A DNA stretch of 64,000 nt from the NCBI RefSeq assembly GCF_030384885.1, contig NZ_CP128613.1. One strand, given 5' to 3'. This document shows positions 4,449 through 23,130 of the stretch, piece by piece. The stretch is from Escherichia coli. Lineage in GTDB: Bacteria; Pseudomonadota; Gammaproteobacteria; Enterobacterales; Enterobacteriaceae. Below the pieces are notes generated by a model. That model was not told the DNA's origin and searched no databases. It saw only the letters and a program-made list of their open reading frames with translations. Position 1 is the stretch's first letter. Each line of letters starts with the position of its first letter. Both the position numbers and the translations under genes were made by a program.

Positions 4449-5495
4449 ATGCCAGTTTTGCAGTGGGGAATGTTATGTGTGCTTTCACTTCTCCTTTCTA
4501 TTGGCTTCCTCGCGGTACATCTTCCGGCGGCACTATTACTTGGGCCAATGATCGCCGGAATCATCTTTAGTATGCGCGGAATTACTCTGCAACTTCCCCG
4601 ATCCGCTTTTCTCGCCGCCCAAGCCATTCTTGGCTGCATGATTGCGCAAAACCTCACTGGTTCGATTCTCACCACGCTAGCCGTTAACTGGCCGATTGTG
4701 CTAGCCATTTTACTCGTGACGTTACTTTCCAGCGCCATCGTGGGTTGGTTATTGGTGCGCTATAGCTCACTGCCTGGAAATACCGGTGCCTGGGGTTCTT
4801 CTCCTGGCGGCGCGGCGGCAATGGTCGCTATGGCGCAAGATTACGGCGCAGATATTCGCCTGGTGGCATTTATGCAATATCTGCGAGTGCTGTTCGTCGC
4901 GGGGGCCGCTGTTCTGGTCACCCGCATGATGCTGGGCGATAACGCTGAAGCGGTTAACCAGCAGATCGTCTGGTTCCCGCCAGTGAGCATTAATCTCCTG
5001 CTTACGATTTTGCTCGCGGTCGTTGCCGGTACGGCGGGATGCTTGCTACGTCTTCCTTCCGGCACGATGCTCATCCCGATGCTGGCGGGCGCAGTGCTCC
5101 AGTCTGGTCAGCTCATCACCATCGAACTACCAGAATGGCTGCTGGCGATGGCGTATATGGCAATTGGCTGGCGGATTGGTCTTGGTTTCGATAAGCAAAT
5201 CTTACTGCGGGCATTGCGCCCGCTGCCACAAATCTTGCTGTCGATTTTTGCTCTGCTGGCTATTTGTGCAGGTATGGCGTGGGGACTGACCCGGTTTATG
5301 CATATTGATTTTATGACTGCCTACCTCGCCACCAGTCCCGGCGGGCTTGATACCGTGGCGGTCATCGCCGCAGGGAGCAATGCCGATATGGCGCTTATTA
5401 TGGCGATGCAAACCCTACGCCTGTTCAGTATTTTGCTGACGGGGCCAGCCATTGCGCGGTTTATTTCAACCTATGCGCCGAAGCGGTCGGCCTAG
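4449..5495 (+). CDS. abrB: AbrB-family inner-membrane protein (putative regulator/transporter)
   Basis: ORF 4371..5495, polytopic hydrophobic protein; start chosen at MPVLQWGML (348 aa), alternative in-frame ATG at 4434. Confidence 0.75.
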
Positions 5496-6283
5496 TGCTG
5501 GCAGCCTGGACACCAGTAAAACGGGCGCGAGGACAACGTGGTTTTCTCAATGATGCTGCCACAACGTTCGCACGGTTCGCCATCACGATGAAAAACCTTA
5601 AAGCGAAACAGCGCCCCATGATGTTTATTCTCATCCACCTGCCCCCGCGTAGCGTAAGAAAGTCGAGGAATCTCCAGTAACGCGTGTGCGAGTGCATCCA
5701 GTTGCGCCGCATTGAGATCTTTCGCTTTATGATTGCCGGTTAACCCCACCTGCCAGAGGATCTCCACCCGCAAATAATTGCCAAGCCCAGCCAGAAACGC
5801 CTGATCGAGTAGTAATCCAGCAAACTGACGGTTACGAAAGCGCGGCGACAATAACCGTTCTTTCGCCACCTCCGGCGTCAGTTTCGGATCCAGCACATCG
5901 GGGCCAACGCGTTGTAAAAACGGATGCGTGGTCAGTTGTTCCGGGGTCAACATCTCAATATCCGAGGCGCTATAAAGCAGAATGGTTTTGTCAGCCGTTT
6001 GCAGTTTTACCCGCAATACTCGCGTGGTCTGCGGCTCTTCGCCGGTATCAACCACGCGCCAGACGCCGTAAAGCTGATTATGGCTGTAGAGCGTTAACCC
6101 GTTGGAAAAATGAGTTAACAACGCCTTACCTCGCGTTTCCACATGGGTAACGTGTTGACCGATAAGTTGTGATTGATAAGGTTTTAACTGCGGGAAGGCA
6201 AACCAGACATCAGTTAGAGGTTTGCCTTTGATCGCCGCCTCCAGGTTATCCGCTGCGCGGCGGATTTCCGGGCCTTCAGGCAT
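5492..6283 (-). CDS. nei: Endonuclease VIII (DNA glycosylase/AP lyase)
   Basis: ORF 5492..6511 contains [14 protein letters not shown]... (Fpg/Nei N-terminal PEGPE motif) and C-terminal zinc finger [25 protein letters not shown]; true start at ATG 6283 (263 aa). Confidence 0.9.
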
Positions 6284-9477: not shown

Positions 9478-11142
<1,665 letters not shown>

Positions 11143-11149
11143 CAGGCCA

Positions 11150-11290
11150 GCACCGATGCCTGATAAGACGCTTAATGCGTCTTATCAGGCCTGGATGTCC
11201 CTGCAATATATTGAATTTGCACTATTTGCCAGGCCGGAGAAGGTGTTCACGCAGTATCCGGCATCCGGGCAAGATTGCCTGACGCGTCTG
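11150..11290. repeat. REP/BIME palindromic element cluster in convergent dtpD-phr intergenic region
   Basis: Imperfect palindromes gcctgataagacgcttaatgcgtcttatcaggc and gccggatgcc...gcctgacgcgtc with a central caatatattgaatttg linker. Confidence 0.7.
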
Positions 11291-12709
11291 TTATTTCCCC
11301 TTCCTCGCCGCCTCATACGCTGCCAACGTTCGTACTCTCGCTTCTTTGTGATCGACTATCGGTTGCGGATAATCCAGCGTCACACCTGATTTATCTGCCC
11401 ACTTCCACGGTTCATGCACCGCTTTCCCTGGTACATCGCGCAGCTCCGGTAACCATCGGCGGATAAACTCACCTTCGCGATCAAATTTCTCGCCCTGGGT
11501 TGTCGGGTTAAAAATACGAAAATACGGCGCAGCATCGGTTCCGGTGGAGGCCGCCCATTGCCAGCCACCGTTATTGGCTGCCAAATCACCATCAATCAGC
11601 TGCGACATGAAATATCGCTCGCCTTCGCGCCAGTCGATCAATAAATCTTTCACCAGAAAACTGGCTGTAATCATCCGTAGCCGGTTATGCATCCAGCCAC
11701 TGCTATTAAGCTGACGCATGGCGGCATCAACAATTGGGTATCCCGTTTTGCCTTCCTGCCAGGCCTTTAAATGGGCGGGATTGCTTTGCCACTGTACGCG
11801 ATCGGTCCAGGCAATAAAGGGGCGATGCTTACACAGTGACGGGTGATACGTCATCAAATGACGGTAGAACTCGCGCCAGATCAGCTCATTAAGCCAGACG
11901 CTACCAGCCCCGCCATCCAGCGCTTGCGGCTGTTCCGCCAACAGGCGATGCAGACACTGGCGAGGCGATAACCCGCCCGTTGCCAGGCTGGCGGACAAAC
12001 GACTGGTGCCTTCCACTGCCGGAAAATCTCGTTGTTGCTCATACTCTCCGGCACCGTTCTGGCAAAACTGGCGTAATTGCGCAATCGCCGCTTTTTCTTC
12101 CACCGGGAAATGCGCAGTATCGAAAGACTGACGAGGATAATTCAGCGTAATGGATGGCGCGGGCTCTATCGATCCGCTACTACGAACTTTTGGTGCAGCG
12201 ACGCACTCCGGCCCCCCTTCTCGCAGCCGTTTCAGCCAGGCGTTTTTAAATGGCGTAAAGACTTTGTACATCTCATGATTGCCAGTCATCACCGCCCCCG
12301 GCGGCAGGATCACGCTGTCATCAAATCCTTCACACACCACGTTACGCAGCGTTCTCTCAACCTGCACATCCCGAGCCCGCTCATTCACCTCATACTGATA
12401 GTTATAAAACAGATGGGTAACACGATTTTCCGCGCACACCTGTTTAACTATTTCGACGCTGGCGGCAAAGTCATCCACTTCATGAAACAGCAAAGGAATG
12501 CCTTTTTCCGCCAGCGCGATTTGTAGCCCGTTCAGTTGTGCATTGATAAATTCAGCCTGACGCGGCGACATATTATGCGCCGCCCACTGGCGTGGTGTAG
12601 CGATATACAACGCCAGCACGCGTGCAGACGAATAGCGGCAAGCGGCCGCCAGCGCGAGATTATCATGCAGACGTAAATCCTGGCGAAACCAGACCAGATG
12701 GGTAGTCAT
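11291..12709 (-). CDS. phr: Deoxyribodipyrimidine photolyase
   Basis: 472-aa ORF, photolyase sequence (MTTHLVWFRQDLRLHDNLAL..., FAD-binding C-terminal domain); overlaps ybgA stop. Confidence 0.9.
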   Translation of the reverse strand: MTTHLVWFRQDLRLHDNLALAAACRYSSARVLALYIATPRQWAAHNMSPRQAEFINAQLNGLQIALAEKGIPLLFHEVDDFAASVEIVKQVCAENRVTHLFYNYQYEVNERARDVQVERTLRNVVCEGFDDSVILPPGAVMTGNHEMYKVFTPFKNAWLKRLREGGPECVAAPKVRSSGSIEPAPSITLNYPRQSFDTAHFPVEEKAAIAQLRQFCQNGAGEYEQQRDFPAVEGTSRLSASLATGGLSPRQCLHRLLAEQPQALDGGAGSVWLNELIWREFYRHLMTYHPSLCKHRPFIAWTDRVQWQSNPAHLKAWQEGKTGYPIVDAAMRQLNSSGWMHNRLRMITASFLVKDLLIDWREGERYFMSQLIDGDLAANNGGWQWAASTGTDAAPYFRIFNPTTQGEKFDREGEFIRRWLPELRDVPGKAVHEPWKWADKSGVTLDYPQPIVDHKEARVRTLAAYEAARKGK

Positions 12710-13215
12710 AAAACTCCTGCATGGCGCAAGTTAATCACCCGCGGCCAAAGTTCGAAATAACGCTGCTCTGAAAGCCAGGCGTCAGGATAAAGCGCCATAT
12801 AGTGTTTGATACGCATCAGCGGCGCAAGAAGCGGTTGCTCGCCACGGCGATAACTGTCGATAAGCGCCGCCAGCTGCTGGCGTTCTGTGGAATCAATATG
12901 TGGGCGAAAATATCCCTGAACGTGCATCAAAACATTGGTGTGGTCACGTCGGTTGGCGGGGTGAGAAAGCAAAACAATTACGCGTTGGCGGTACTGGTTG
13001 TAATAGTCATCCAGATTTTGCCACTGGTGAATATCAGCCACAAACGGGCCAAGTTTGCGGTATTCCGGCTGGGAATGAGCCAGAAAGACGAGTTTATAGC
13101 GGCTGTGATAATCGTTGAGCGCCCCGCGCGTTAAGCCTCGCTCTTTAAGACGGTGTAACTCATGCAAAGCAAAAATGCGGATAAGGGTGCTGTCATCAAA
13201 AAGTTGTTGATTCAT
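12706..13215 (-). CDS. ybgA: DUF1722-family protein co-transcribed with photolyase
   Basis: 169-aa ORF immediately upstream of and overlapping phr start. Confidence 0.8.
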   Translation of the reverse strand: MNQQLFDDSTLIRIFALHELHRLKERGLTRGALNDYHSRYKLVFLAHSQPEYRKLGPFVADIHQWQNLDDYYNQYRQRVIVLLSHPANRRDHTNVLMHVQGYFRPHIDSTERQQLAALIDSYRRGEQPLLAPLMRIKHYMALYPDAWLSEQRYFELWPRVINLRHAGVL

Positions 13216-13412
13216 TACTACTCCTGGGCGGTTTACAGGAGTAAGTGTAGACGGCGGTACTGAAAAAACGAAACGAATAAATGATAACAGTAAAAAAATT
13301 CAATTATTCATAATAAATTTCATGGTGGCAAGAAATAGTTTCTTTTCTTCATCGCTCATGGCAGCAACGTTTAACATGTTGTCATCAAAATTATTGATGA
13401 TATTTTTTAATT

Positions 13413-13748
13413 TCAGTAACTGCAAAGGAGAAAAATAGTCACTCCGATGAGATTACTCAATACCAGCAATAGCTCCCCATCATATAAATAGCCCACCATA
13501 AGATTAATCTCTATCATCTCAATTGCTTTTTGTACAGCAAGCGCCGGTAAGATATTCTGACGAAGCATTTTGGCAATATCATTTTCATCCAGTTCATCGG
13601 GTGTTTTATCTAATAAAGAATTATACCAGTTTATTAAACCACTTTTGAAAGCGAACGAATCATATTGCAGGTGATAAATCTGTTTTAGGGTTTCTTTATT
13701 TTTCAATTTATAGTGCCTTTGTTTGCTATAATTTTTCTGAAATAACAT
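13413..13748 (-). CDS. Hypothetical small protein with hydrophobic C-terminus (island ORF 5)
   Basis: 111-aa ORF in AT-rich island; start overlaps stop of upstream ORF (TGATG), indicating translational coupling; no family recognised. Confidence 0.45.
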   Translation of the reverse strand: MLFQKNYSKQRHYKLKNKETLKQIYHLQYDSFAFKSGLINWYNSLLDKTPDELDENDIAKMLRQNILPALAVQKAIEMIEINLMVGYLYDGELLLVLSNLIGVTIFLLCSY

Positions 13749-14215
13749 CAGCGAGTTTGCTCAGGTGCAGGGATGACCGAAATTGTCATGTATTTTTTCA
13801 GTCTGGCTTCTCGTTTCACACCTTTCGGATCTGAACCAAAAGGAAGCGTCAAGCATGGTGAGTCAACGGTTTGGATTGTCCAGAGAGAATCACCAATGAA
13901 TCTGAAATTGATGCTATCCGCTGTAACGGATAATCCCTCAAAACTTCCCGTCGCATACTCATTACCCAAACGTACGGTCTCTTTAACTCCATCGTTAACA
14001 TCGATAAGGACAATTGTCAGTGATTCCTCAAAAATAACGTCATCCGTCAGAAAAAGGATATAACGCTGGTCATTAACCTGAATTGCCGCTTCCAGTATTT
14101 GCCCTGGTACAATAATACCTGTGTTATTGCCATTAAGCACAACGTCAGACTGAGCCTGAGATAAATCAGTCGCTTTGTGAACCTTGACCAACGATATCGA
14201 ATTAACCTGTTGCAT
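13748..14215 (-). CDS. Hypothetical protein (island ORF 4)
   Basis: ORF track gives 13748..14308 from a GTG; I prefer ATG at 14215 (MQQVNSISLV..., 155 aa) because the upstream part is better explained by a separate out-of-frame glycine-zipper ORF ending 2 nt before this ATG. Confidence 0.45.
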   Translation of the reverse strand: MQQVNSISLVKVHKATDLSQAQSDVVLNGNNTGIIVPGQILEAAIQVNDQRYILFLTDDVIFEESLTIVLIDVNDGVKETVRLGNEYATGSFEGLSVTADSINFRFIGDSLWTIQTVDSPCLTLPFGSDPKGVKREARLKKYMTISVIPAPEQTR

Positions 14216-14217
14216 AA

Positions 14218-14358
14218 TCAATTCCACAAGCGCCCCATTTCCCATGCGGCAAGTGCACCGCCGACAAAGCCGCCAATAAGTACGCAAACAGGTGCTCCTG
14301 GACCACACATCAATCCGGTCAACGCACCGCCTGCGACAGCACCGGCAATAATATTCAT
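14218..14358 (-). CDS. 46-aa double glycine-zipper transmembrane micropeptide (island ORF 3)
   Basis: My own translation of the minus strand: MNIIAGAVAGGALTGLMCGPGAPVCVLIGGFVGGALAAWEMGRLWN, stop TGA 2 nt before the next start; two GxxxG-type glycine zippers; not in ORF track (below length cutoff). Confidence 0.4.
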   Translation of the reverse strand: MNIIAGAVAGGALTGLMCGPGAPVCVLIGGFVGGALAAWEMGRLWN

Positions 14359-14541
14359 CCGGGTACGACTGCCAGTGGTTTTAACAGATTTACGCTCACC
14401 GTTACGTATCCTGCCACCACTCAGGTTGCAGACGCGGCAGTCACAGCCTTGACGGTGTTGAAACTAAAGTTCAGGTGATAGTCTGATGTTCATAGTTTGA
14501 GCATTATCCCCTGACAGAATCAAATCAAGCAGTGTCAATGA

Positions 14542-14799
14542 TCACGTGTATATATCATTTAAAGCATTATCAAGCCAATCTTCCATGTTTTTAATTTTAG
14601 CCCGCGCATATAAATCATTCATAACATCCTCATAACTCTGTCCATCATTGACCATACAATTAGCTGTATGAGGCAGAACATGTATAAAATCAGACAATAT
14701 AAAACAAGCCTTTGAATTTCCAGAGTTAGCTGCAATTCTGATATCAATCAATCCTCTGGCAATCAATTTAAGAATAACATCTTGCATTTTAATTTCCAT
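14542..14799 (-). CDS. Hypothetical small cytoplasmic protein, immunity-protein-like (island ORF 2)
   Basis: 85-aa ORF in AT-rich island, co-oriented with neighbours; no family recognised. Confidence 0.45.
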   Translation of the reverse strand: MEIKMQDVILKLIARGLIDIRIAANSGNSKACFILSDFIHVLPHTANCMVNDGQSYEDVMNDLYARAKIKNMEDWLDNALNDIYT

Positions 14800-14881
14800 A
14801 TCATCCAGTTAAATTTCAGTAGTAAATCGTCTATCAAAAAAAGATGAAATTAACATTCATAAATTTATTACAATATGAAAA

Positions 14882-15235
14882 TCAAAAATATACATCATCA
14901 GCTTCTACCGAAAACTCCATGGCTCCTAAGGCACCTAAATCAATACTAAATATAGTATCACTTTCCTTAGCACTCCCAACATAGATAAAATAGCCTAAAT
15001 CTCCGTCTTGACCTATCAAAAAATAGTCAGGTTCCACTTGTTGAATATCATATGTTTCATTTCTTTCAATAAGATCAGAATAGTTATATAAATATAATGT
15101 TTCGTGCTTCTTATTAGTTATTTCATAGGTCTCACTATCTTTAATTTCTTCTATCAAAAAACGTTTATACACTGGAGGAAACTTGATTGACATGTCAAAT
15201 TCAATTTTATTTATATATTCTATAATTTTATTCAT
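14882..15235 (-). CDS. SUKH/SMI1-KNR4-like immunity-type protein (island ORF 1)
   Basis: 117-aa ORF; FPPVYKRFLIEE ... YFLIGQDGDLGYFIYVG resembles the SMI1/KNR4 (SUKH-1) pattern (aromatic/Pro N-terminal motif plus GxDGxGxxxY) seen in polymorphic-toxin immunity proteins; assignment by eye only. Confidence 0.5.
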   Translation of the reverse strand: MNKIIEYINKIEFDMSIKFPPVYKRFLIEEIKDSETYEITNKKHETLYLYNYSDLIERNETYDIQQVEPDYFLIGQDGDLGYFIYVGSAKESDTIFSIDLGALGAMEFSVEADDVYF

Positions 15236-15469
15236 GTTAAGAATACCTGAAAGATTATTTATTGATTATCTTGATGAATATATCTTCACTTTTTATTTTC
15301 ATTTACTCATCGCGGAAATACACATTGCCTTGTAGACAAGCGCTAATAATACGTTATGAACCTGACTTCCGCCAGACAATCAATCTATGAATTCATTACG
15401 CCGTAGTGTTTTAGAAAGACACTTTCTGACCAGATGGTGAACCATATACTACATCGCGCATTATAAAAA

Positions 15470-15505
15470 AACCGCCAGCGTTTCCACTAGCGGTTTTCAA
15501 TGTTT
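15470..15505. terminator. Putative bidirectional hairpin downstream of ybfA
   Basis: aaaaaaaccgccagcgtttccactagcggtttt: short GC stem flanked by A-run and T-run. Confidence 0.4.
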
Positions 15506-15519
15506 TCAAAACTCAGCAA

Positions 15520-15726
15520 TCAGTAAAAATCACCGGTTGCCTTTTCGGCCTGATCCATCCACACCGGCTTATCGCTGGTTTTCGACCAGACGCGATGCAG
15601 GTAGCTGTAAAAGCGGGCGCGGTCTTTCCAGAAAAGCATGAAAGGCAGCGCCAAAACGCCCGCTGCAACCGCATAAGTACGGCGTAAAAAGATAAGCCAT
15701 GCAGGATATTCTCTGTAGAGTTCCAT
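15520..15726 (-). CDS. ybfA: DUF2517-family small protein
   Basis: 68-aa ORF ([35 protein letters not shown]...), divergent from kdpF. Confidence 0.8.
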
Positions 15727-15937
15727 ACTTTTCTCCCCCTTTTGTATCTACCCGGTGAATGGCACCGGAAAAATGAATTTGTTTATCTGATGAAAATAGT
15801 ACCGCCTTTTGTGTAATTTTACTACTCATCCGACCACTTATTTTTGCTTATTGATGGTTTATTTACATTCATCGTGTAATTAAGTTACATGAAAGTTAAA
15901 TTAATACTAAACATTAGTTAAATCATGGCTTTTGCCA

Positions 15938-15956
15938 TTTTTATACTTTTTTTACA
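15938..15956 (+). promoter_or_regulatory. KdpE operator (direct-repeat half sites) in kdpFABC promoter
   Basis: tttttatactttttttaca about 80 bp upstream of kdpF start; matches the described KdpE-binding direct repeat TTTATA-N-TTTACA. Confidence 0.65.
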
Positions 15957-16038
15957 CCCCACCCGCAGATTTTTGCGAAATCTTTGCAGCCAGAATTCTA
16001 CCCTTCCGGTATCACTTTTAGGCCACTGGAGGTGCACT

Positions 16039-16128
16039 GTGAGTGCAGGCGTGATAGCCGGCGTGTTGCTGGTGTTTTTATTACTGGGTTATCTGGTTTA
16101 TGCCCTGATCAATGCGGAGGCGTTCTGA
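16039..16128 (+). CDS. kdpF: K+-transporting ATPase small subunit KdpF
   Basis: GTG-initiated 29-codon ORF ([28 protein letters not shown]) whose stop overlaps the kdpA ATG; embedded in ORF 15925..16128. Confidence 0.85.
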
Positions 16129-17801
16129 TGGCTGCGCAAGGGTTCTTACTGATTGCCACGTTTTTACTGGTGTTAATGGTGCTGGCGCGCCCTTTGGGCA
16201 GTGGGCTGGCGCGGCTGATTAATGATATTCCTCTTCCTGGTACGACGGGCGTTGAGCGCGTACTTTTTCGCGCACTTGGCGTGTCTGACCGTGAGATGAA
16301 CTGGAAGCAGTATCTCTGTGCCATTCTCGGCCTGAACATGCTGGGGCTGGCAGTGCTGTTTTTTATGTTGCTCGGTCAGCACTATCTGCCGCTTAATCCA
16401 CAGCAGTTGCCAGGGCTGTCGTGGGATCTGGCGCTGAATACCGCCGTCAGCTTTGGCACGAATACCAACTGGCAATCTTACAGCGGTGAAACCACGTTGA
16501 GCTATTTCAGCCAGATGGCGGGCTTAACGGTGCAAAACTTTCTTTCTGCCGCCAGCGGGATTGCGGTGATTTTTGCCCTCATTCGTGCATTTACCCGCCA
16601 GAGCATGAGCACACTCGGGAATGCCTGGGTCGATCTGCTACGCATCACGTTATGGGTGCTAGTCCCTGTGGCGTTGTTGATCGCACTGTTTTTTATTCAA
16701 CAAGGTGCGCTGCAAAACTTTCTGCCCTATCAGGCGGTGAATACCGTTGAAGGAGCGCAACAGCTGTTACCCATGGGGCCTGTAGCTTCTCAGGAAGCGA
16801 TCAAGATGCTCGGTACTAACGGCGGTGGCTTCTTTAATGCCAACTCGTCGCATCCGTTTGAAAACCCAACCGCACTGACCAACTTCGTGCAGATGCTGGC
16901 GATTTTCTTGATCCCAACAGCGCTGTGCTTTGCCTTTGGTGAAGTGGCAGGCGATCGCCGCCAGGGGCGCATGTTGCTGTGGGCGATGTCAGTGATTTTT
17001 GTCATCTGCGTAGGCGTGGTGATGTGGGCAGAAGTTCAGGGTAATCCTCATCTGCTGGCGCTGGGTGCGGACAGCAGCATCAATATGGAAGGTAAAGAGA
17101 GCCGTTTCGGCGTGCTGGTCAGTAGCCTGTTTGCGGTCGTGACTACAGCGGCTTCCTGTGGCGCGGTGATTGCGATGCATGATTCGTTTACCGCTCTCGG
17201 CGGCATGGTGCCGATGTGGCTGATGCAAATTGGTGAAGTGGTGTTCGGCGGTGTCGGTTCTGGTCTTTACGGCATGATGCTGTTTGTCCTGCTGGCGGTG
17301 TTTATTGCTGGGCTGATGATTGGTCGTACGCCGGAATATCTGGGTAAAAAAATCGACGTACGCGAGATGAAACTGACCGCACTGGCGATTCTGGTCACTC
17401 CAACGCTGGTACTGATGGGCGCAGCACTGGCGATGATGACCGACGCCGGACGTAGCGCCATGCTCAACCCTGGCCCGCATGGTTTTAGCGAAGTGCTGTA
17501 CGCCGTGTCATCCGCCGCTAACAACAACGGCAGCGCCTTTGCCGGATTAAGCGCCAACTCTCCGTTCTGGAACTGTTTACTGGCGTTCTGCATGTTTGTT
17601 GGTCGCTTCGGGGTGATTATCCCGGTAATGGCAATTGCCGGTTCGCTGGTGAGTAAAAAGAGCCAACCCGCCAGCTCCGGCACGCTGCCAACGCACGGCC
17701 CGCTGTTTGTTGGCCTGTTAATCGGCACCGTGTTGCTGGTTGGCGCACTGACCTTTATCCCTGCCCTGGCGCTTGGTCCGGTGGCGGAATATCTCTCCTG
17801 A
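16128..17801 (+). CDS. kdpA: K+-transporting ATPase subunit A (channel subunit)
   Basis: ORF 15984..17801; start at [12 protein letters not shown] (557 aa), overlapping kdpF stop. Confidence 0.9.
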
Positions 17802-17823
17802 TGATATTGAGTGAGCACTGAAT

Positions 17824-19872
17824 ATGAGTCGTAAACAACTGGCGCTATTCGAACCAACACTTGTCGTTCAGGCGCTGAAAGAAGCGGTGAAAAAATTAAA
17901 CCCGCAGGCGCAATGGCGCAATCCGGTGATGTTTATCGTCTGGATCGGCAGTCTGCTGACCACCTGTATTAGCATCGCGATGGCAAGCGGTGCGATGCCT
18001 GGCAATGCGCTGTTTAGCGCGGCCATTAGCGGCTGGCTGTGGGTCACCGTACTGTTCGCTAATTTCGCCGAGGCGCTGGCAGAAGGCCGCAGTAAAGCGC
18101 AGGCCAACAGTCTGAAAGGGGTGAAAAAAACTGCCTTTGCCCGCAAGCTGCGTGAGCCGAAATATGGCGCTGCGGCGGACAAAGTTCCTGCCGATCAACT
18201 GCGTAAAGGCGATATCGTGCTGGTAGAAGCTGGCGATATTATCCCCTGCGATGGTGAAGTCATTGAAGGGGGCGCATCGGTCGATGAAAGCGCCATCACC
18301 GGGGAATCGGCACCGGTGATCCGTGAATCCGGCGGCGATTTTGCCTCCGTCACCGGCGGCACGCGTATTCTTTCTGACTGGCTGGTGATTGAGTGCAGCG
18401 TTAACCCCGGTGAGACATTTCTGGATCGGATGATCGCGATGGTGGAAGGCGCGCAGCGACGTAAAACGCCGAACGAGATTGCCCTGACCATTCTGCTGAT
18501 TGCCCTGACTATCGTCTTTTTACTGGCAACCGCCACGCTGTGGCCGTTTTCCGCGTGGGGCGGTAATGCAGTCAGTGTAACGGTACTGGTGGCGCTGCTG
18601 GTCTGTCTGATTCCAACCACCATCGGTGGCCTGTTGTCAGCGATCGGCGTCGCCGGGATGAGTCGGATGCTGGGCGCGAATGTGATTGCCACCAGCGGGC
18701 GTGCAGTTGAAGCGGCGGGCGACGTGGACGTCCTGCTGCTGGATAAAACCGGTACCATCACCCTCGGTAACCGTCAGGCATCAGAGTTTATCCCTGCGCA
18801 GGGCGTAGAGGAAAAAACGCTGGCCGACGCAGCGCAACTGGCTTCGCTGGCCGACGAAACGCCGGAAGGCCGCAGTATTGTGATCCTCGCCAAGCAGCGT
18901 TTTAACCTGCGCGAGCGCGATGTGCAGTCGCTTCACGCCACTTTTGTACCGTTTACTGCGCAAAGTCGAATGAGCGGGATCAATATCGATAACCGTATGA
19001 TCCGTAAAGGTTCTGTCGATGCCATTCGCCGCCATGTTGAGGCTAACGGTGGTCACTTCCCTGCCGATATCGATCAAAAAGTCGATCAGGTTGCGCGTCA
19101 GGGAGCCACGCCGCTGGTGGTGGTGGAAGGTTCTCGTGTGCTGGGCGTTATTGCGCTGAAAGATATCGTCAAAGGCGGTATTAAAGAGCGCTTCGCCCAA
19201 CTGCGCAAAATGGGCATTAAAACGGTGATGATTACTGGCGATAACCGTCTGACTGCCGCCGCCATTGCCGCGGAAGCGGGCGTCGATGATTTCCTCGCCG
19301 AAGCGACACCGGAGGCCAAGCTGGCGTTAATTCGTCAGTATCAGGCGGAAGGCCGTTTGGTGGCGATGACCGGCGACGGCACCAACGATGCTCCGGCGCT
19401 GGCGCAGGCAGATGTCGCGGTGGCGATGAACTCTGGTACTCAGGCGGCGAAAGAAGCGGGCAATATGGTGGATCTCGACTCTAACCCGACCAAGTTGATC
19501 GAGGTGGTGCATATTGGCAAACAGATGCTGATGACCCGTGGCTCGCTGACCACCTTCAGCATTGCCAACGATGTGGCGAAATACTTCGCCATTATTCCGG
19601 CGGCGTTCGCGGCAACATATCCGCAGTTAAATGCGCTGAACATCATGCGCCTGCATTCACCCGACTCCGCCATCCTCAGTGCGGTGATTTTCAACGCCTT
19701 GATTATCGTCTTTTTAATTCCCCTGGCGTTAAAAGGCGTGAGTTATAAACCGCTTACCGCTTCTGCCATGTTGCGCCGTAACTTATGGATTTACGGTCTG
19801 GGTGGGCTGCTGGTGCCGTTTATTGGTATCAAAGTCATTGATTTACTGCTGACCGTTTGCGGTCTGGTGTGA
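17824..19872 (+). CDS. kdpB: K+-transporting P-type ATPase catalytic subunit B
   Basis: 682-aa ORF with P-type ATPase motifs ([19 protein letters not shown]). Confidence 0.95.
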
Positions 19873-19880
19873 GGTTTACC

Positions 19881-20453
19881 ATGCGTGGATTACGTCCGGC
19901 ATTATCAACATTTCTCTTTTTGTTACTGATTACTGGCGGTGTTTACCCGCTGCTGACCACCGCGCTGGGGCAATGGTGGTTTCCCTGGCAGGCCAATGGT
20001 TCGTTGATTCGCGAAGGTGATACGGTGCGCGGCTCGGCATTAATCGGGCAGAATTTTACCGGCAACGGCTATTTTCATGGTCGCCCGTCGGCAACGGCAG
20101 AAATGCCCTATAATCCACAGGCTTCTGGCGGGAGCAATCTGGCGATCAGTAACCCTGAGCTGGATAAACTAATAGCCGCACGCGTTGCTGCATTACGGGC
20201 CGCTAACCCGGATGCCAGCGCGAACGTTCCGGTTGAACTGGTGACGGCGTCGGCAAGCGGGCTGGACAATAACATCACCCCGCAAGCGGCGGCCTGGCAG
20301 ATCCCACGCGTGGCGAAAGCGCGTAATCTCAGCGTTGAACAGCTCACGCAGCTGATCGCAAAATATAGCCAACAACCGCTGGTGAAATATATCGGCCAGC
20401 CGGTCGTCAACATTGTCGAACTCAATCTGGCGCTGGATAAGCTTGATGAATAA
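19881..20453 (+). CDS. kdpC: K+-transporting ATPase subunit C
   Basis: ORF 19857..20453; start at [11 protein letters not shown] (190 aa). Confidence 0.9.
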
Positions 20454-23130
20454 CGAACCCTTACGTCCCGACCCCGATCGTCTGCTGGAACAAACTGCCG
20501 CGCCGCATCGGGGGAAGCTGAAAGTATTTTTCGGTGCCTGTGCAGGCGTCGGGAAGACCTGGGCGATGCTGGCAGAAGCCCAGCGACTGCGGGCGCAAGG
20601 GCTGGATATTGTGGTTGGCGTGGTTGAAACTCACGGACGGAAAGATACCGCCGCAATGCTGGAAGGGCTGGCTGTTCTGCCGCTAAAACGCCAGGCGTAC
20701 CGTGGGCGGCACATCAGCGAGTTTGATCTCGATGCCGCCCTCGCCCGCCGTCCGGCGCTGATCTTAATGGACGAACTGGCGCACAGTAATGCGCCAGGCT
20801 CTCGTCATCCTAAACGCTGGCAGGACATTGAAGAGCTGCTGGAAGCGGGCATTGATGTTTTCACTACCGTCAACGTTCAGCATCTGGAAAGCCTGAACGA
20901 TGTGGTCAGCGGCGTCACCGGAATTCAGGTGCGGGAAACCGTGCCCGATCCCTTTTTTGATGCTGCCGACGACGTAGTGCTGGTGGACTTGCCCCCAGAC
21001 GATCTGCGTCAACGGCTGAAAGAAGGCAAAGTCTATATTGCCGGGCAGGCGGAGCGCGCCATTGAACATTTTTTCCGCAAAGGCAATCTGATCGCCCTGC
21101 GCGAACTGGCACTGCGCCGTACTGCCGATCGCGTAGATGAGCAAATGCGCGCCTGGCGGGGGCATCCTGGCGAAGAGAAAGTCTGGCACACGCGCGACGC
21201 GATTCTTTTATGTATTGGGCATAACACCGGCAGCGAAAAACTGGTCCGCGCGGCGGCACGGTTGGCATCGCGCCTTGGGAGCGTCTGGCACGCGGTGTAT
21301 GTTGAAACCCCTGCCCTGCATCGCTTACCGGAGAAAAAACGTCGGGCAATTCTCAGCGCCTTACGTCTGGCGCAGGAGCTGGGCGCGGAGACAGCAACAC
21401 TTTCTGATCCGGCGGAAGAAAAAGCCGTAGTGCATTATGCCCGTGAACATAATCTCGGCAAGATTATTCTCGGTCGCCCGGCCTCGCGCCGCTGGTGGCG
21501 TCGGGAAACGTTTGCTGACCGACTGGCGCGCATCGCCCCCGATCTCGATCAGGTGCTGGTCGCGCTTGATGAACCACCCGCCCGCCCGCTTAATAACGCG
21601 CCGGATAGCCGCTCTTTTAAAGACAAGTGGCGGGTACAGATTCAGGGGTGCGTGGTTGCCGCCGCGTTATGTGCCGTTATCACCTTAATTGCCATGCAGT
21701 GGCTGATGGCGTTTGATGCCGCCAACCTGGTGATGCTGTATCTGCTTGGCGTGGTGGTGGTGGCGCTATTTTATGGACGCTGGCCTTCGGTGCTTGCTAC
21801 CGTCATTAATGTGGTGAGTTTCGATCTCTTTTTTATCGCCCCACGCGGCACGCTCGCCGTCTCTGATGTGCAATATCTGCTGACCTTCGCGGTGATGTTA
21901 ACCGTCGGGCTGGTGATCGGGAACCTTACTGCTGGCGTGCGTTATCAGGCGCGGGTAGCCCGTTACCGCGAACAACGCACACGGCACTTATATGAAATGT
22001 CGAAAGCTCTGGCTGTGGGCCGCAGTCCGCAGGACATCGCCGCCACCAGCGAACAATTTATTGCTTCTACGTTTCATGCCCGCAGCCAGGTATTGTTACC
22101 CGATGACAACGGTAAATTGCAGCCGTTAACACATCCGCAAGGAATGACGCCGTGGGACGATGCCATCGCGCAGTGGAGTTTTGATAAAGGCCTGCCTGCG
22201 GGCGCGGGCACCGATACGTTACCCGGTGTGCCATACCAGATTTTGCCGTTAAAAAGCGGTGAGAAAACCTACGGGCTGGTGGTGGTGGAACCGGGGAATC
22301 TGCGCCAGTTGATGATCCCGGAACAGCAACGCCTGCTGGAGACGTTCACGCTGTTAGTTGCCAATGCCCTGGAACGCCTGGCGCTGACCGCCAGCGAAGA
22401 ACAGGCGCGGATGGCAAGCGAACGAGAACAGATCCGCAACGCCCTGCTGGCGGCGCTTTCGCATGATTTACGCACGCCGCTTACGGTGCTGTTCGGTCAG
22501 GCAGAAATCTTAACGCTCGATCTGGCAAGCGAAGGATCGCCTCACGCCCGCCAGGCCAGCGAGATTCGTCAGCATGTGCTGAACACGACCCGACTGGTGA
22601 ATAATCTACTGGATATGGCGCGAATTCAGTCCGGCGGCTTTAATTTGAAGAAAGAGTGGTTAACGCTGGAAGAAGTGGTCGGTAGCGCGCTACAAATGCT
22701 GGAACCGGGATTATCATCGCCCATCAACCTGTCTTTGCCAGAACCGCTGACCTTAATCCACGTTGATGGGCCACTCTTTGAACGGGTGCTGATTAATCTG
22801 CTGGAGAACGCGGTGAAATATGCGGGTGCGCAGGCCGAAATTGGTATCGATGCCCACGTTGAGGGCGAAAATCTACAACTGGATGTCTGGGATAACGGCC
22901 CCGGTCTTCCGCCAGGTCAGGAGCAGACGATATTCGATAAGTTTGCTCGTGGAAATAAAGAGTCGGCGGTGCCGGGCGTTGGGCTTGGGCTGGCAATTTG
23001 TCGGGCGATTGTGGATGTACACGACGGCACCATTACCGCCTTCAACCGACCGCAAGGTGGTGCCTGTTTTCGTGTTACACTTCCCCAGCAAACTGCCCCT
23101 GAACTTGAAGAATTTCATGAGGATATGTGA
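20446..23130 (+). CDS. kdpD: Sensor histidine kinase KdpD
   Basis: ORF 20413..23130; start at [16 protein letters not shown]; H-box [14 protein letters not shown], ATPase G-boxes; overlaps kdpC end. Confidence 0.95.

Follow-up and report, generated by a model that had tools for sequence, protein, structure and literature searches.

A toxin-free SUKH-family immunity gene in a small polyimmunity island at the rhsC site of Escherichia coli

The described systems closest to the locus examined here are the Imm-SUKH immunity proteins, the Rhs-CT/RhsI modules of the T6SS and the polyimmunity loci, together with the acquired interbacterial defence islands that Ross et al. reportedly described in 2019 and that serve as a further comparison. 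For Imm-SUKH (PF09346), the exemplar structure given by Zhang et al. 2012 (PMC3482391) is 3d5p (BF1740). The same study describes Tox-SHH as a nuclease domain of the HNH/EndoVII fold, lists Imm-SUKH among its immunity families, and reports more generally that SUKH proteins are partners of many HNH-fold toxin families (PMC3482391). Heterogeneous polyimmunity loci that contain no toxin are described there as well (PMC3482391).

We analysed a window of 64,000 nucleotides, the whole stretch of E. coli DNA to which all positions below refer unless another locus is named. The window region is 100% identical to E. coli strain 2013C-4282 (NZ_CP027579), in which RefSeq labels the CDS identical to our gene of interest 'hypothetical protein' (WP_001033417.1). 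The gene order in the window is ybgI-dtpD-phrB-ybgA, then a short island, then ybfA-kdpFABCDE (Table 1). An initial annotation of this DNA had described an ORF of 117 codons in the island, likened its product to the SMI1/KNR4 (SUKH-1) immunity fold on the strength of two motifs, and regarded it as an orphan immunity gene at an Rhs hotspot. The ORF is as described, and its translation contains both IKFPPVYKRFLIEE and FLIGQDGDLGYFIYVGS. The gene has a GC content of 25-32%, compared with 50-58% in the flanks, and is the sole such AT-rich trough in the 64 kb. Its neighbours are ybfA (15520-15726) upstream and, on its own strand, an 85-aa ORF downstream. RefSeq lists in order after the SUKH gene, all on the same strand, an 85-aa hypothetical protein, an IS630 transposase fragment, a 155-aa hypothetical protein and a CDI immunity protein.

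Table 1. Features of the island between ybgA and ybfA, with positions in the 64-kb window.
Feature	Coordinates	Strand	Evidence
Low-GC island flanked by ybgA and ybfA, with four immunity-type genes in tandem on one strand	13254..15465	minus	blastn junctions against K-12 and Ecol_316
CdiI_3-family immunity gene, frameshifted	13300..13748	minus	Pfam PF18616, E=1.4e-17; remaining ORF 13413-13748 (111 aa)
155-aa ORF, family without a name; candidate immunity protein or partner of the glycine-zipper remnant	13748..14215	minus	homologue neighbourhood
Glycine-zipper (membrane-helix) small-protein gene, putative 3' remnant	14221..14424	minus	tblastn with 98-aa Enterobacter protein
85-aa ORF, second orphan Rhs-immunity-like gene of an unnamed, different family	14542..14799	minus	homology to Rhs-linked 85-aa protein
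117-aa SUKH-1 (SMI1/KNR4) immunity-type gene	14882..15235	minus	ATG start, intact ORF, no cognate toxin
Island-specific AT-rich non-coding stretch, without toxin remnant	15236..15465	minus	stops in all three frames

When searched alone, the 117-aa sequence matches the Pfam family SMI1_KNR4 (PF09346) over residues 6-95 with a modest score (E=1.6e-4, 22.7 bits) and, more weakly, SUKH_6 and SUKH_5, while the NCBIfam scan matched no model to any of five island or flank proteins, this one included. A database search returned 41 homologous clusters. Many of these, among them an E. coli protein 97% identical to ours, are already listed by NCBI as 'SMI1/KNR4 family protein', and elements of this kind are well described. 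An alignment of 26 homologues taken from the clusters formed the basis for a family profile and for a structure model. Scanned singly, 21 of the 26 aligned homologues matched PF09346 at E<=0.001 (best 1e-9), and the profile of the whole alignment found the sequence of PDB entry 3d5p with E=2.1e-10. The AlphaFold2 model of the 117-aa protein, made with the family alignment, had a pLDDT of 88.2 and a pTM of 0.82. Compared with the PDB by Foldseek, this model ranked 3d5p_A first (E=7.6e-7, TM 0.75, rmsd 2.2 A over 112 columns). The next ranks went to B. subtilis YobK (2prv, TM 0.63), a SUKH-type immunity protein, and to PSPTO_5518 (2pag); RhsPI, the immunity protein of an Rhs-WHH pair (8bd1_B), appeared further down as a weak match. 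Profile comparison and predicted structure both support the resemblance first proposed, and assignment of the protein to SUKH/SMI1-KNR4 is supported at the level of sequence and of modelled fold. Like the described Imm-SUKH proteins, it is small, has the same predicted alpha+beta fold and matches their profile. It differs from them in being shorter than most, in its low score when searched alone against PF09346, and in belonging to a narrow subfamily, the 41 clusters of which come from Enterobacterales and a few Flavobacteriia.

Homologues with 47-72% identity lay in an Rhs locus in every genomic context that we examined. In E. marmotae the homologue (L006-L008, 70% identity) starts 20 bp past a full-length prePAAR-PAAR-Rhs gene that ends in a Tox-SHH domain (PF15652), and upstream of this Rhs gene are VgrG and a gene for a DcrB-family chaperone. 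The arrangement is the same in one Cronobacter locus (L004), where the homologue starts ~20 bp beyond a full-length PAAR-Rhs-Tox-SHH gene; in two other Cronobacter strains it sits further along an array of orphan Rhs fragments. In Photorhabdus (L009, L010) the homologue again starts ~20 bp downstream, here of an Rhs fragment that has Tox-SHH. We then built a Tox-SHH HMM from the toxin domains of E. marmotae, Cronobacter and Photorhabdus and scanned 1.2 kb upstream of each homologue. The domain was complete in E. marmotae, Cronobacter L004 and Photorhabdus, complete and split over two frames in Serratia fonticola (L016/L017, ~5300-6000; HMM 5-63 and 60-152), and present as a 3' remnant in Xenorhabdus (L018/19, HMM 86-152) and Tenacibaculum (L020/21, HMM 106-152). 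No match was found within the same 1.2 kb in Cronobacter L003/L005, Mangrovibacter or the Escherichia island. Tox-SHH or a remnant of it is thus directly upstream of the homologue in six genera, and the association with toxin domains, on the recurrence of which the initial annotation had staked its proposal, is a recurrent one.

These data establish that the SUKH subfamily to which the 117-aa protein belongs pairs with the Rhs C-terminal Tox-SHH domain in relatives. As with other Imm-SUKH proteins, its homologues are encoded directly after nuclease toxin domains of the HNH fold, and those with 70-72% identity are the immunity genes of Rhs-CT/RhsI T6SS modules (for example E. marmotae L006). 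This is also the highest identity to any toxin-linked homologue, so that a specificity of the window protein for any existing toxin is no more than putative. The Serratia sequence represents a freshly frameshifted orphan toxin, a halfway stage on the path from a toxin-immunity pair to an immunity gene on its own.

The window copy, unlike the Imm-SUKH genes described with their toxins, has no toxin adjacent to it. Neither an rhs gene nor an orphan rhs-CT lies immediately 5' of it; instead, 230 bp of non-coding DNA separate it from the conserved ybfA terminator, at which homology with K-12 resumes (position 15466, the junction being 15465/15466). The whole interval up to ybfA, 284 bp long, contains stops in all frames and shows no blastn similarity to the toxin loci that we fetched, and homology with the E. 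marmotae toxin-immunity locus begins exactly at the start codon of the immunity gene. TBLASTN of five Rhs-Tox-SHH C-termini against the 64-kb window returned nothing (best E=0.054, at an unrelated position), and the Tox-SHH HMM had no match in its six frames. The claim that no cognate toxin is adjacent therefore holds for both neighbours, ybfA and the 85-aa ORF, and these searches for Tox-SHH came back empty across the whole window. Of 5426 complete E. coli genomes, a set that includes the strain 100% identical to the window, 170 carry the gene. In each of these, a single uninterrupted match runs from the gene through the spacer upstream of it into the ybfA terminator, so that the E. coli copy is always at the rhsC site and always toxin-free. 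Judged by these comparisons, made at the DNA level for the genome set, the gene is an orphan in the window strain and likewise in all 170 of the complete E. coli genomes.

Between the same junctions, K-12 has the 9.6-kb rhsC element (rhsC, ybfB, an orphan Rhs fragment, ybfC and copies of ISAs1), in the orientation of the island genes; by blastn against K-12 the island that replaces it is 2.2 kb long. This replacement at identical junctions bears out the view of the gene as an orphan at an Rhs hotspot. Its supposed retention after the loss of an Rhs core, in contrast, is one of two histories, and acquisition of a cassette of immunity genes only is equally compatible with the data because no Rhs remnant is left in the window. 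The island resembles the Rhs-CT/RhsI T6SS modules in that it shares site and orientation with K-12 rhsC (rhsC-ybfB), but it differs from them in having no rhs core, VgrG, PAAR or toxin C-terminal domain. Rfam at a permissive threshold gave no RNA family in 12500-16500.

The island exists in more than one form. The commoner Ecol_316 type (L002) is without the sequence at window positions 13741-14550 and has ~240 extra bases (L002 13469-13707) adjoining the ybfA terminator. The 810-bp module at 13741-14550 was found in 13 of the 5426 E. coli genomes, compared with 170 for the SUKH gene. Other Escherichia assemblies contain the window's island type at 98.9% identity and with the same neighbours, and the cluster of a 99% identical SUKH protein bears the name of E. 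fergusonii. When window positions 9500-21000 were compared in 500-bp steps with L025, L029 and L031, the island was 99.2-100% identical to them, whereas the flanks (dtpD, phrB, ybgA and kdpA-C) were a mosaic at 92-98% identity, which suggests that the island has spread recently by recombination. Escherichia of divergent background, perhaps E. fergusonii among them, may have exchanged the island in recent times, and the flanks of the rhsC site appear to be rich in recombination.

The remaining genes of the island were examined in the same manner. The initial annotation had taken the 85-aa ORF for a possible second immunity-like gene, and this is supported by its 57% identity (E=4e-32) to a protein of the same length from E. 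coli E62, the gene of which begins 2 bp beyond a full-length Rhs gene linked to VgrG. That paralogue occurs in about 100 E. coli genomes. The ORF itself has no Pfam or NCBIfam match, and Pfam gave no match either for the toxin domain of the E62 Rhs protein, its last 273 aa. In E. coli PapM-36-2 (L011 6986-11737) the Rhs effector and the 85-aa immunity gene are annotated as one fused CDS of 1583 aa, the toxin end of which reads ...DDSFFGTCNMKNEF..., whereas in E62 (L012 6986-11738) it reads ...DDSFFWDM, followed by a stop and then a separate gene; the fused CDS is either a toxin-immunity fusion or an artefact of sequencing or an indel.

RefSeq calls positions 14305-14424 a fragment of an 'IS630 family transposase'. 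TBLASTN with a 98-aa glycine-zipper protein from Enterobacter, however, aligned 68 residues in this part of the island at 56% identity (E=1.8e-18), and the aligned sequence ends 3 bp before the 155-aa ORF, as it does in Enterobacter (L013). From its translation, this stretch looks like the remnant of a membrane toxin rather than a transposase. The stretch encodes the last 60-odd residues of a small glycine-zipper protein, ending in ...AGGALTGLMCGPGAPVCVLIGGFVGGALAAWEMGRLWN and a stop. The 155-aa ORF has no Pfam match; its homologues, of 63-83% identity, come from Enterobacter and Cronobacter, none has a Pfam domain, and those of Enterobacter directly follow the 98-aa glycine-zipper protein. 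The remnant and the ORF look like a toxin-remnant plus immunity module, in which the 155-aa product would be the immunity protein. We also considered the 155-aa ORF as the missing toxin of the SUKH gene and rejected it, since its homologues are small proteins in their own right, encoded after the glycine-zipper protein and not near SUKH genes. The last gene, that of the CdiI_3 family, is annotated by RefSeq as a 'contact-dependent growth inhibition system immunity protein'. Relative to intact alleles of 135 aa (L025) and 149 aa, a 1-bp deletion in a run of G near 13444/13445 shifts its frame, and the 97-aa CDS of RefSeq is therefore a truncated product.

Taken as a unit, the island has the hallmarks of a heterogeneous polyimmunity locus. 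The SUKH, CdiI_3 and 85-aa RhsI-like genes belong to unrelated families, stand in tandem on the minus strand and are accompanied by no intact toxin gene, and the content of the site varies between strains (the window type, the Ecol_316 type and the rhsC element of K-12), all as in the loci described previously (PMC3482391). The SUKH gene is an orphan immunity gene within such a small heterogeneous locus, an arrangement already described. The island differs from polyimmunity loci and defence islands in being very small: it has four genes, one of them frameshifted, and for two the assignment comes solely from the neighbourhood of their homologues; in addition, it has no adjacent recombinase gene and occupies an Rhs site rather than a mobile element.

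The main alternative to a functional immunity gene is a relic without function: the loss or replacement of an Rhs element would have stranded the SUKH gene or carried it along as a hitch-hiker, and its sequence would so far have escaped degradation. Some of the island is decaying: public data contain shortened forms of the SUKH protein (P0009, P0020, P0028 and P0033-37), the adjoining CdiI_3 gene is frameshifted and the toxin 3' remnant persists beside the 155-aa ORF. The gene is also kept in only 3% of complete E. coli genomes, and no convincing promoter was found; a simple scan revealed no sigma-70-like promoter in the 230 bp upstream of the gene, and promoter and terminator sites in the region were no more frequent than expected by chance. 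Each of these observations would fit a relic. Against it, the window allele and that of Ecol_316 differ at 16 sites, 13 synonymous and 3 nonsynonymous, giving a dN/dS of 0.045 (dS 0.23), and the ratio is 0.08-0.19 in comparisons with toxin-linked homologues. These values argue for purifying selection on the orphan gene, with the proviso that some of the differences may have accumulated while it was still linked to a toxin. Moreover, 169 of the 170 genomic copies are nearly complete, with 80% or more of the gene present, the ORF of the window is intact with a confidently predicted fold, and the near-identity of the island (99-100%) over flanks of 92-98% suggests recent spread instead of passive decay. 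We therefore regard a relic as unlikely, though it is the alternative that best withstands the data.

It could also be argued that the gene is not an orphan at all and that it guards against a divergent Tox-SHH, or another HNH-fold toxin, encoded elsewhere in the genome. Direct inspection covered the 64 kb of the window, a word-indexed protein search for the Tox-SHH domain gave 18 short fragments only and no full-length Rhs proteins, and the many HNH-fold families known to pair with SUKH proteins (PMC3482391) would leave room for such a partner. When the toxin plus immunity region of E. marmotae was used as a blastn query against the 5426 complete E. coli genomes, however, the only matches were to the Rhs-core end of the query (positions 2-96) and to its immunity part; at the DNA level the toxin-coding part had no match in any of these genomes, including that of the strain 100% identical to the window. 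In addition, wherever the toxin is present in relatives it is immediately upstream of the immunity gene. A guarded toxin at a distant locus is accordingly very improbable in our estimation. A housekeeping or regulatory role of the kind proposed for eukaryotic Smi1/Knr4 is scarcely credible, since the name of the Pfam family, which comes from yeast regulators, and the lack of a toxin beside the gene are outweighed by the location of all bacterial homologues found in Rhs toxin loci or arrays, by the absence of the gene from 97% of E. coli genomes and by its residence in a low-GC, horizontally acquired island together with other immunity genes.

We consider it likely that the gene encodes a SUKH-1 immunity protein of a Tox-SHH-neutralising subfamily, toxin-free and standing first in a polyimmunity island at the rhsC site. 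The comparisons above establish the family and fold of the protein, show its relatives to be paired with Tox-SHH, and place the gene, as an orphan under purifying selection, at the rhsC site. As for mechanism, the 117-aa protein would bind incoming Tox-SHH nuclease domains injected by T6SS-armed competitors, such as E. marmotae, Cronobacter and the like; binding would block their DNase activity and stop the cleavage of DNA. The role of the protein would be one of pre-emptive defence rather than self-protection.

More tentatively, the island as a whole might be an actively maintained and horizontally spreading defence cassette of immunity genes only, by means of which Rhs-less E. coli and E. 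fergusonii would withstand the T6SS effectors, Tox-SHH among them, of the Enterobacterales around them, and its spread would proceed by recombination at the rhsC site. This broader proposal draws on the contrast in identity between island and flanks and on the dN/dS of 0.045, and we hold it with less confidence than the reading of the SUKH gene itself.

The analysis assigns a likely function, and a likely class of target toxin (the Tox-SHH nucleases of Rhs proteins), to a gene that is mostly labelled 'hypothetical' in RefSeq. It introduces no new principle, but it shows that the rhsC site of E. coli can hold a toxin-free set of immunity genes and offers a small, concrete example of what would be pre-emptive interbacterial defence in enteric bacteria.
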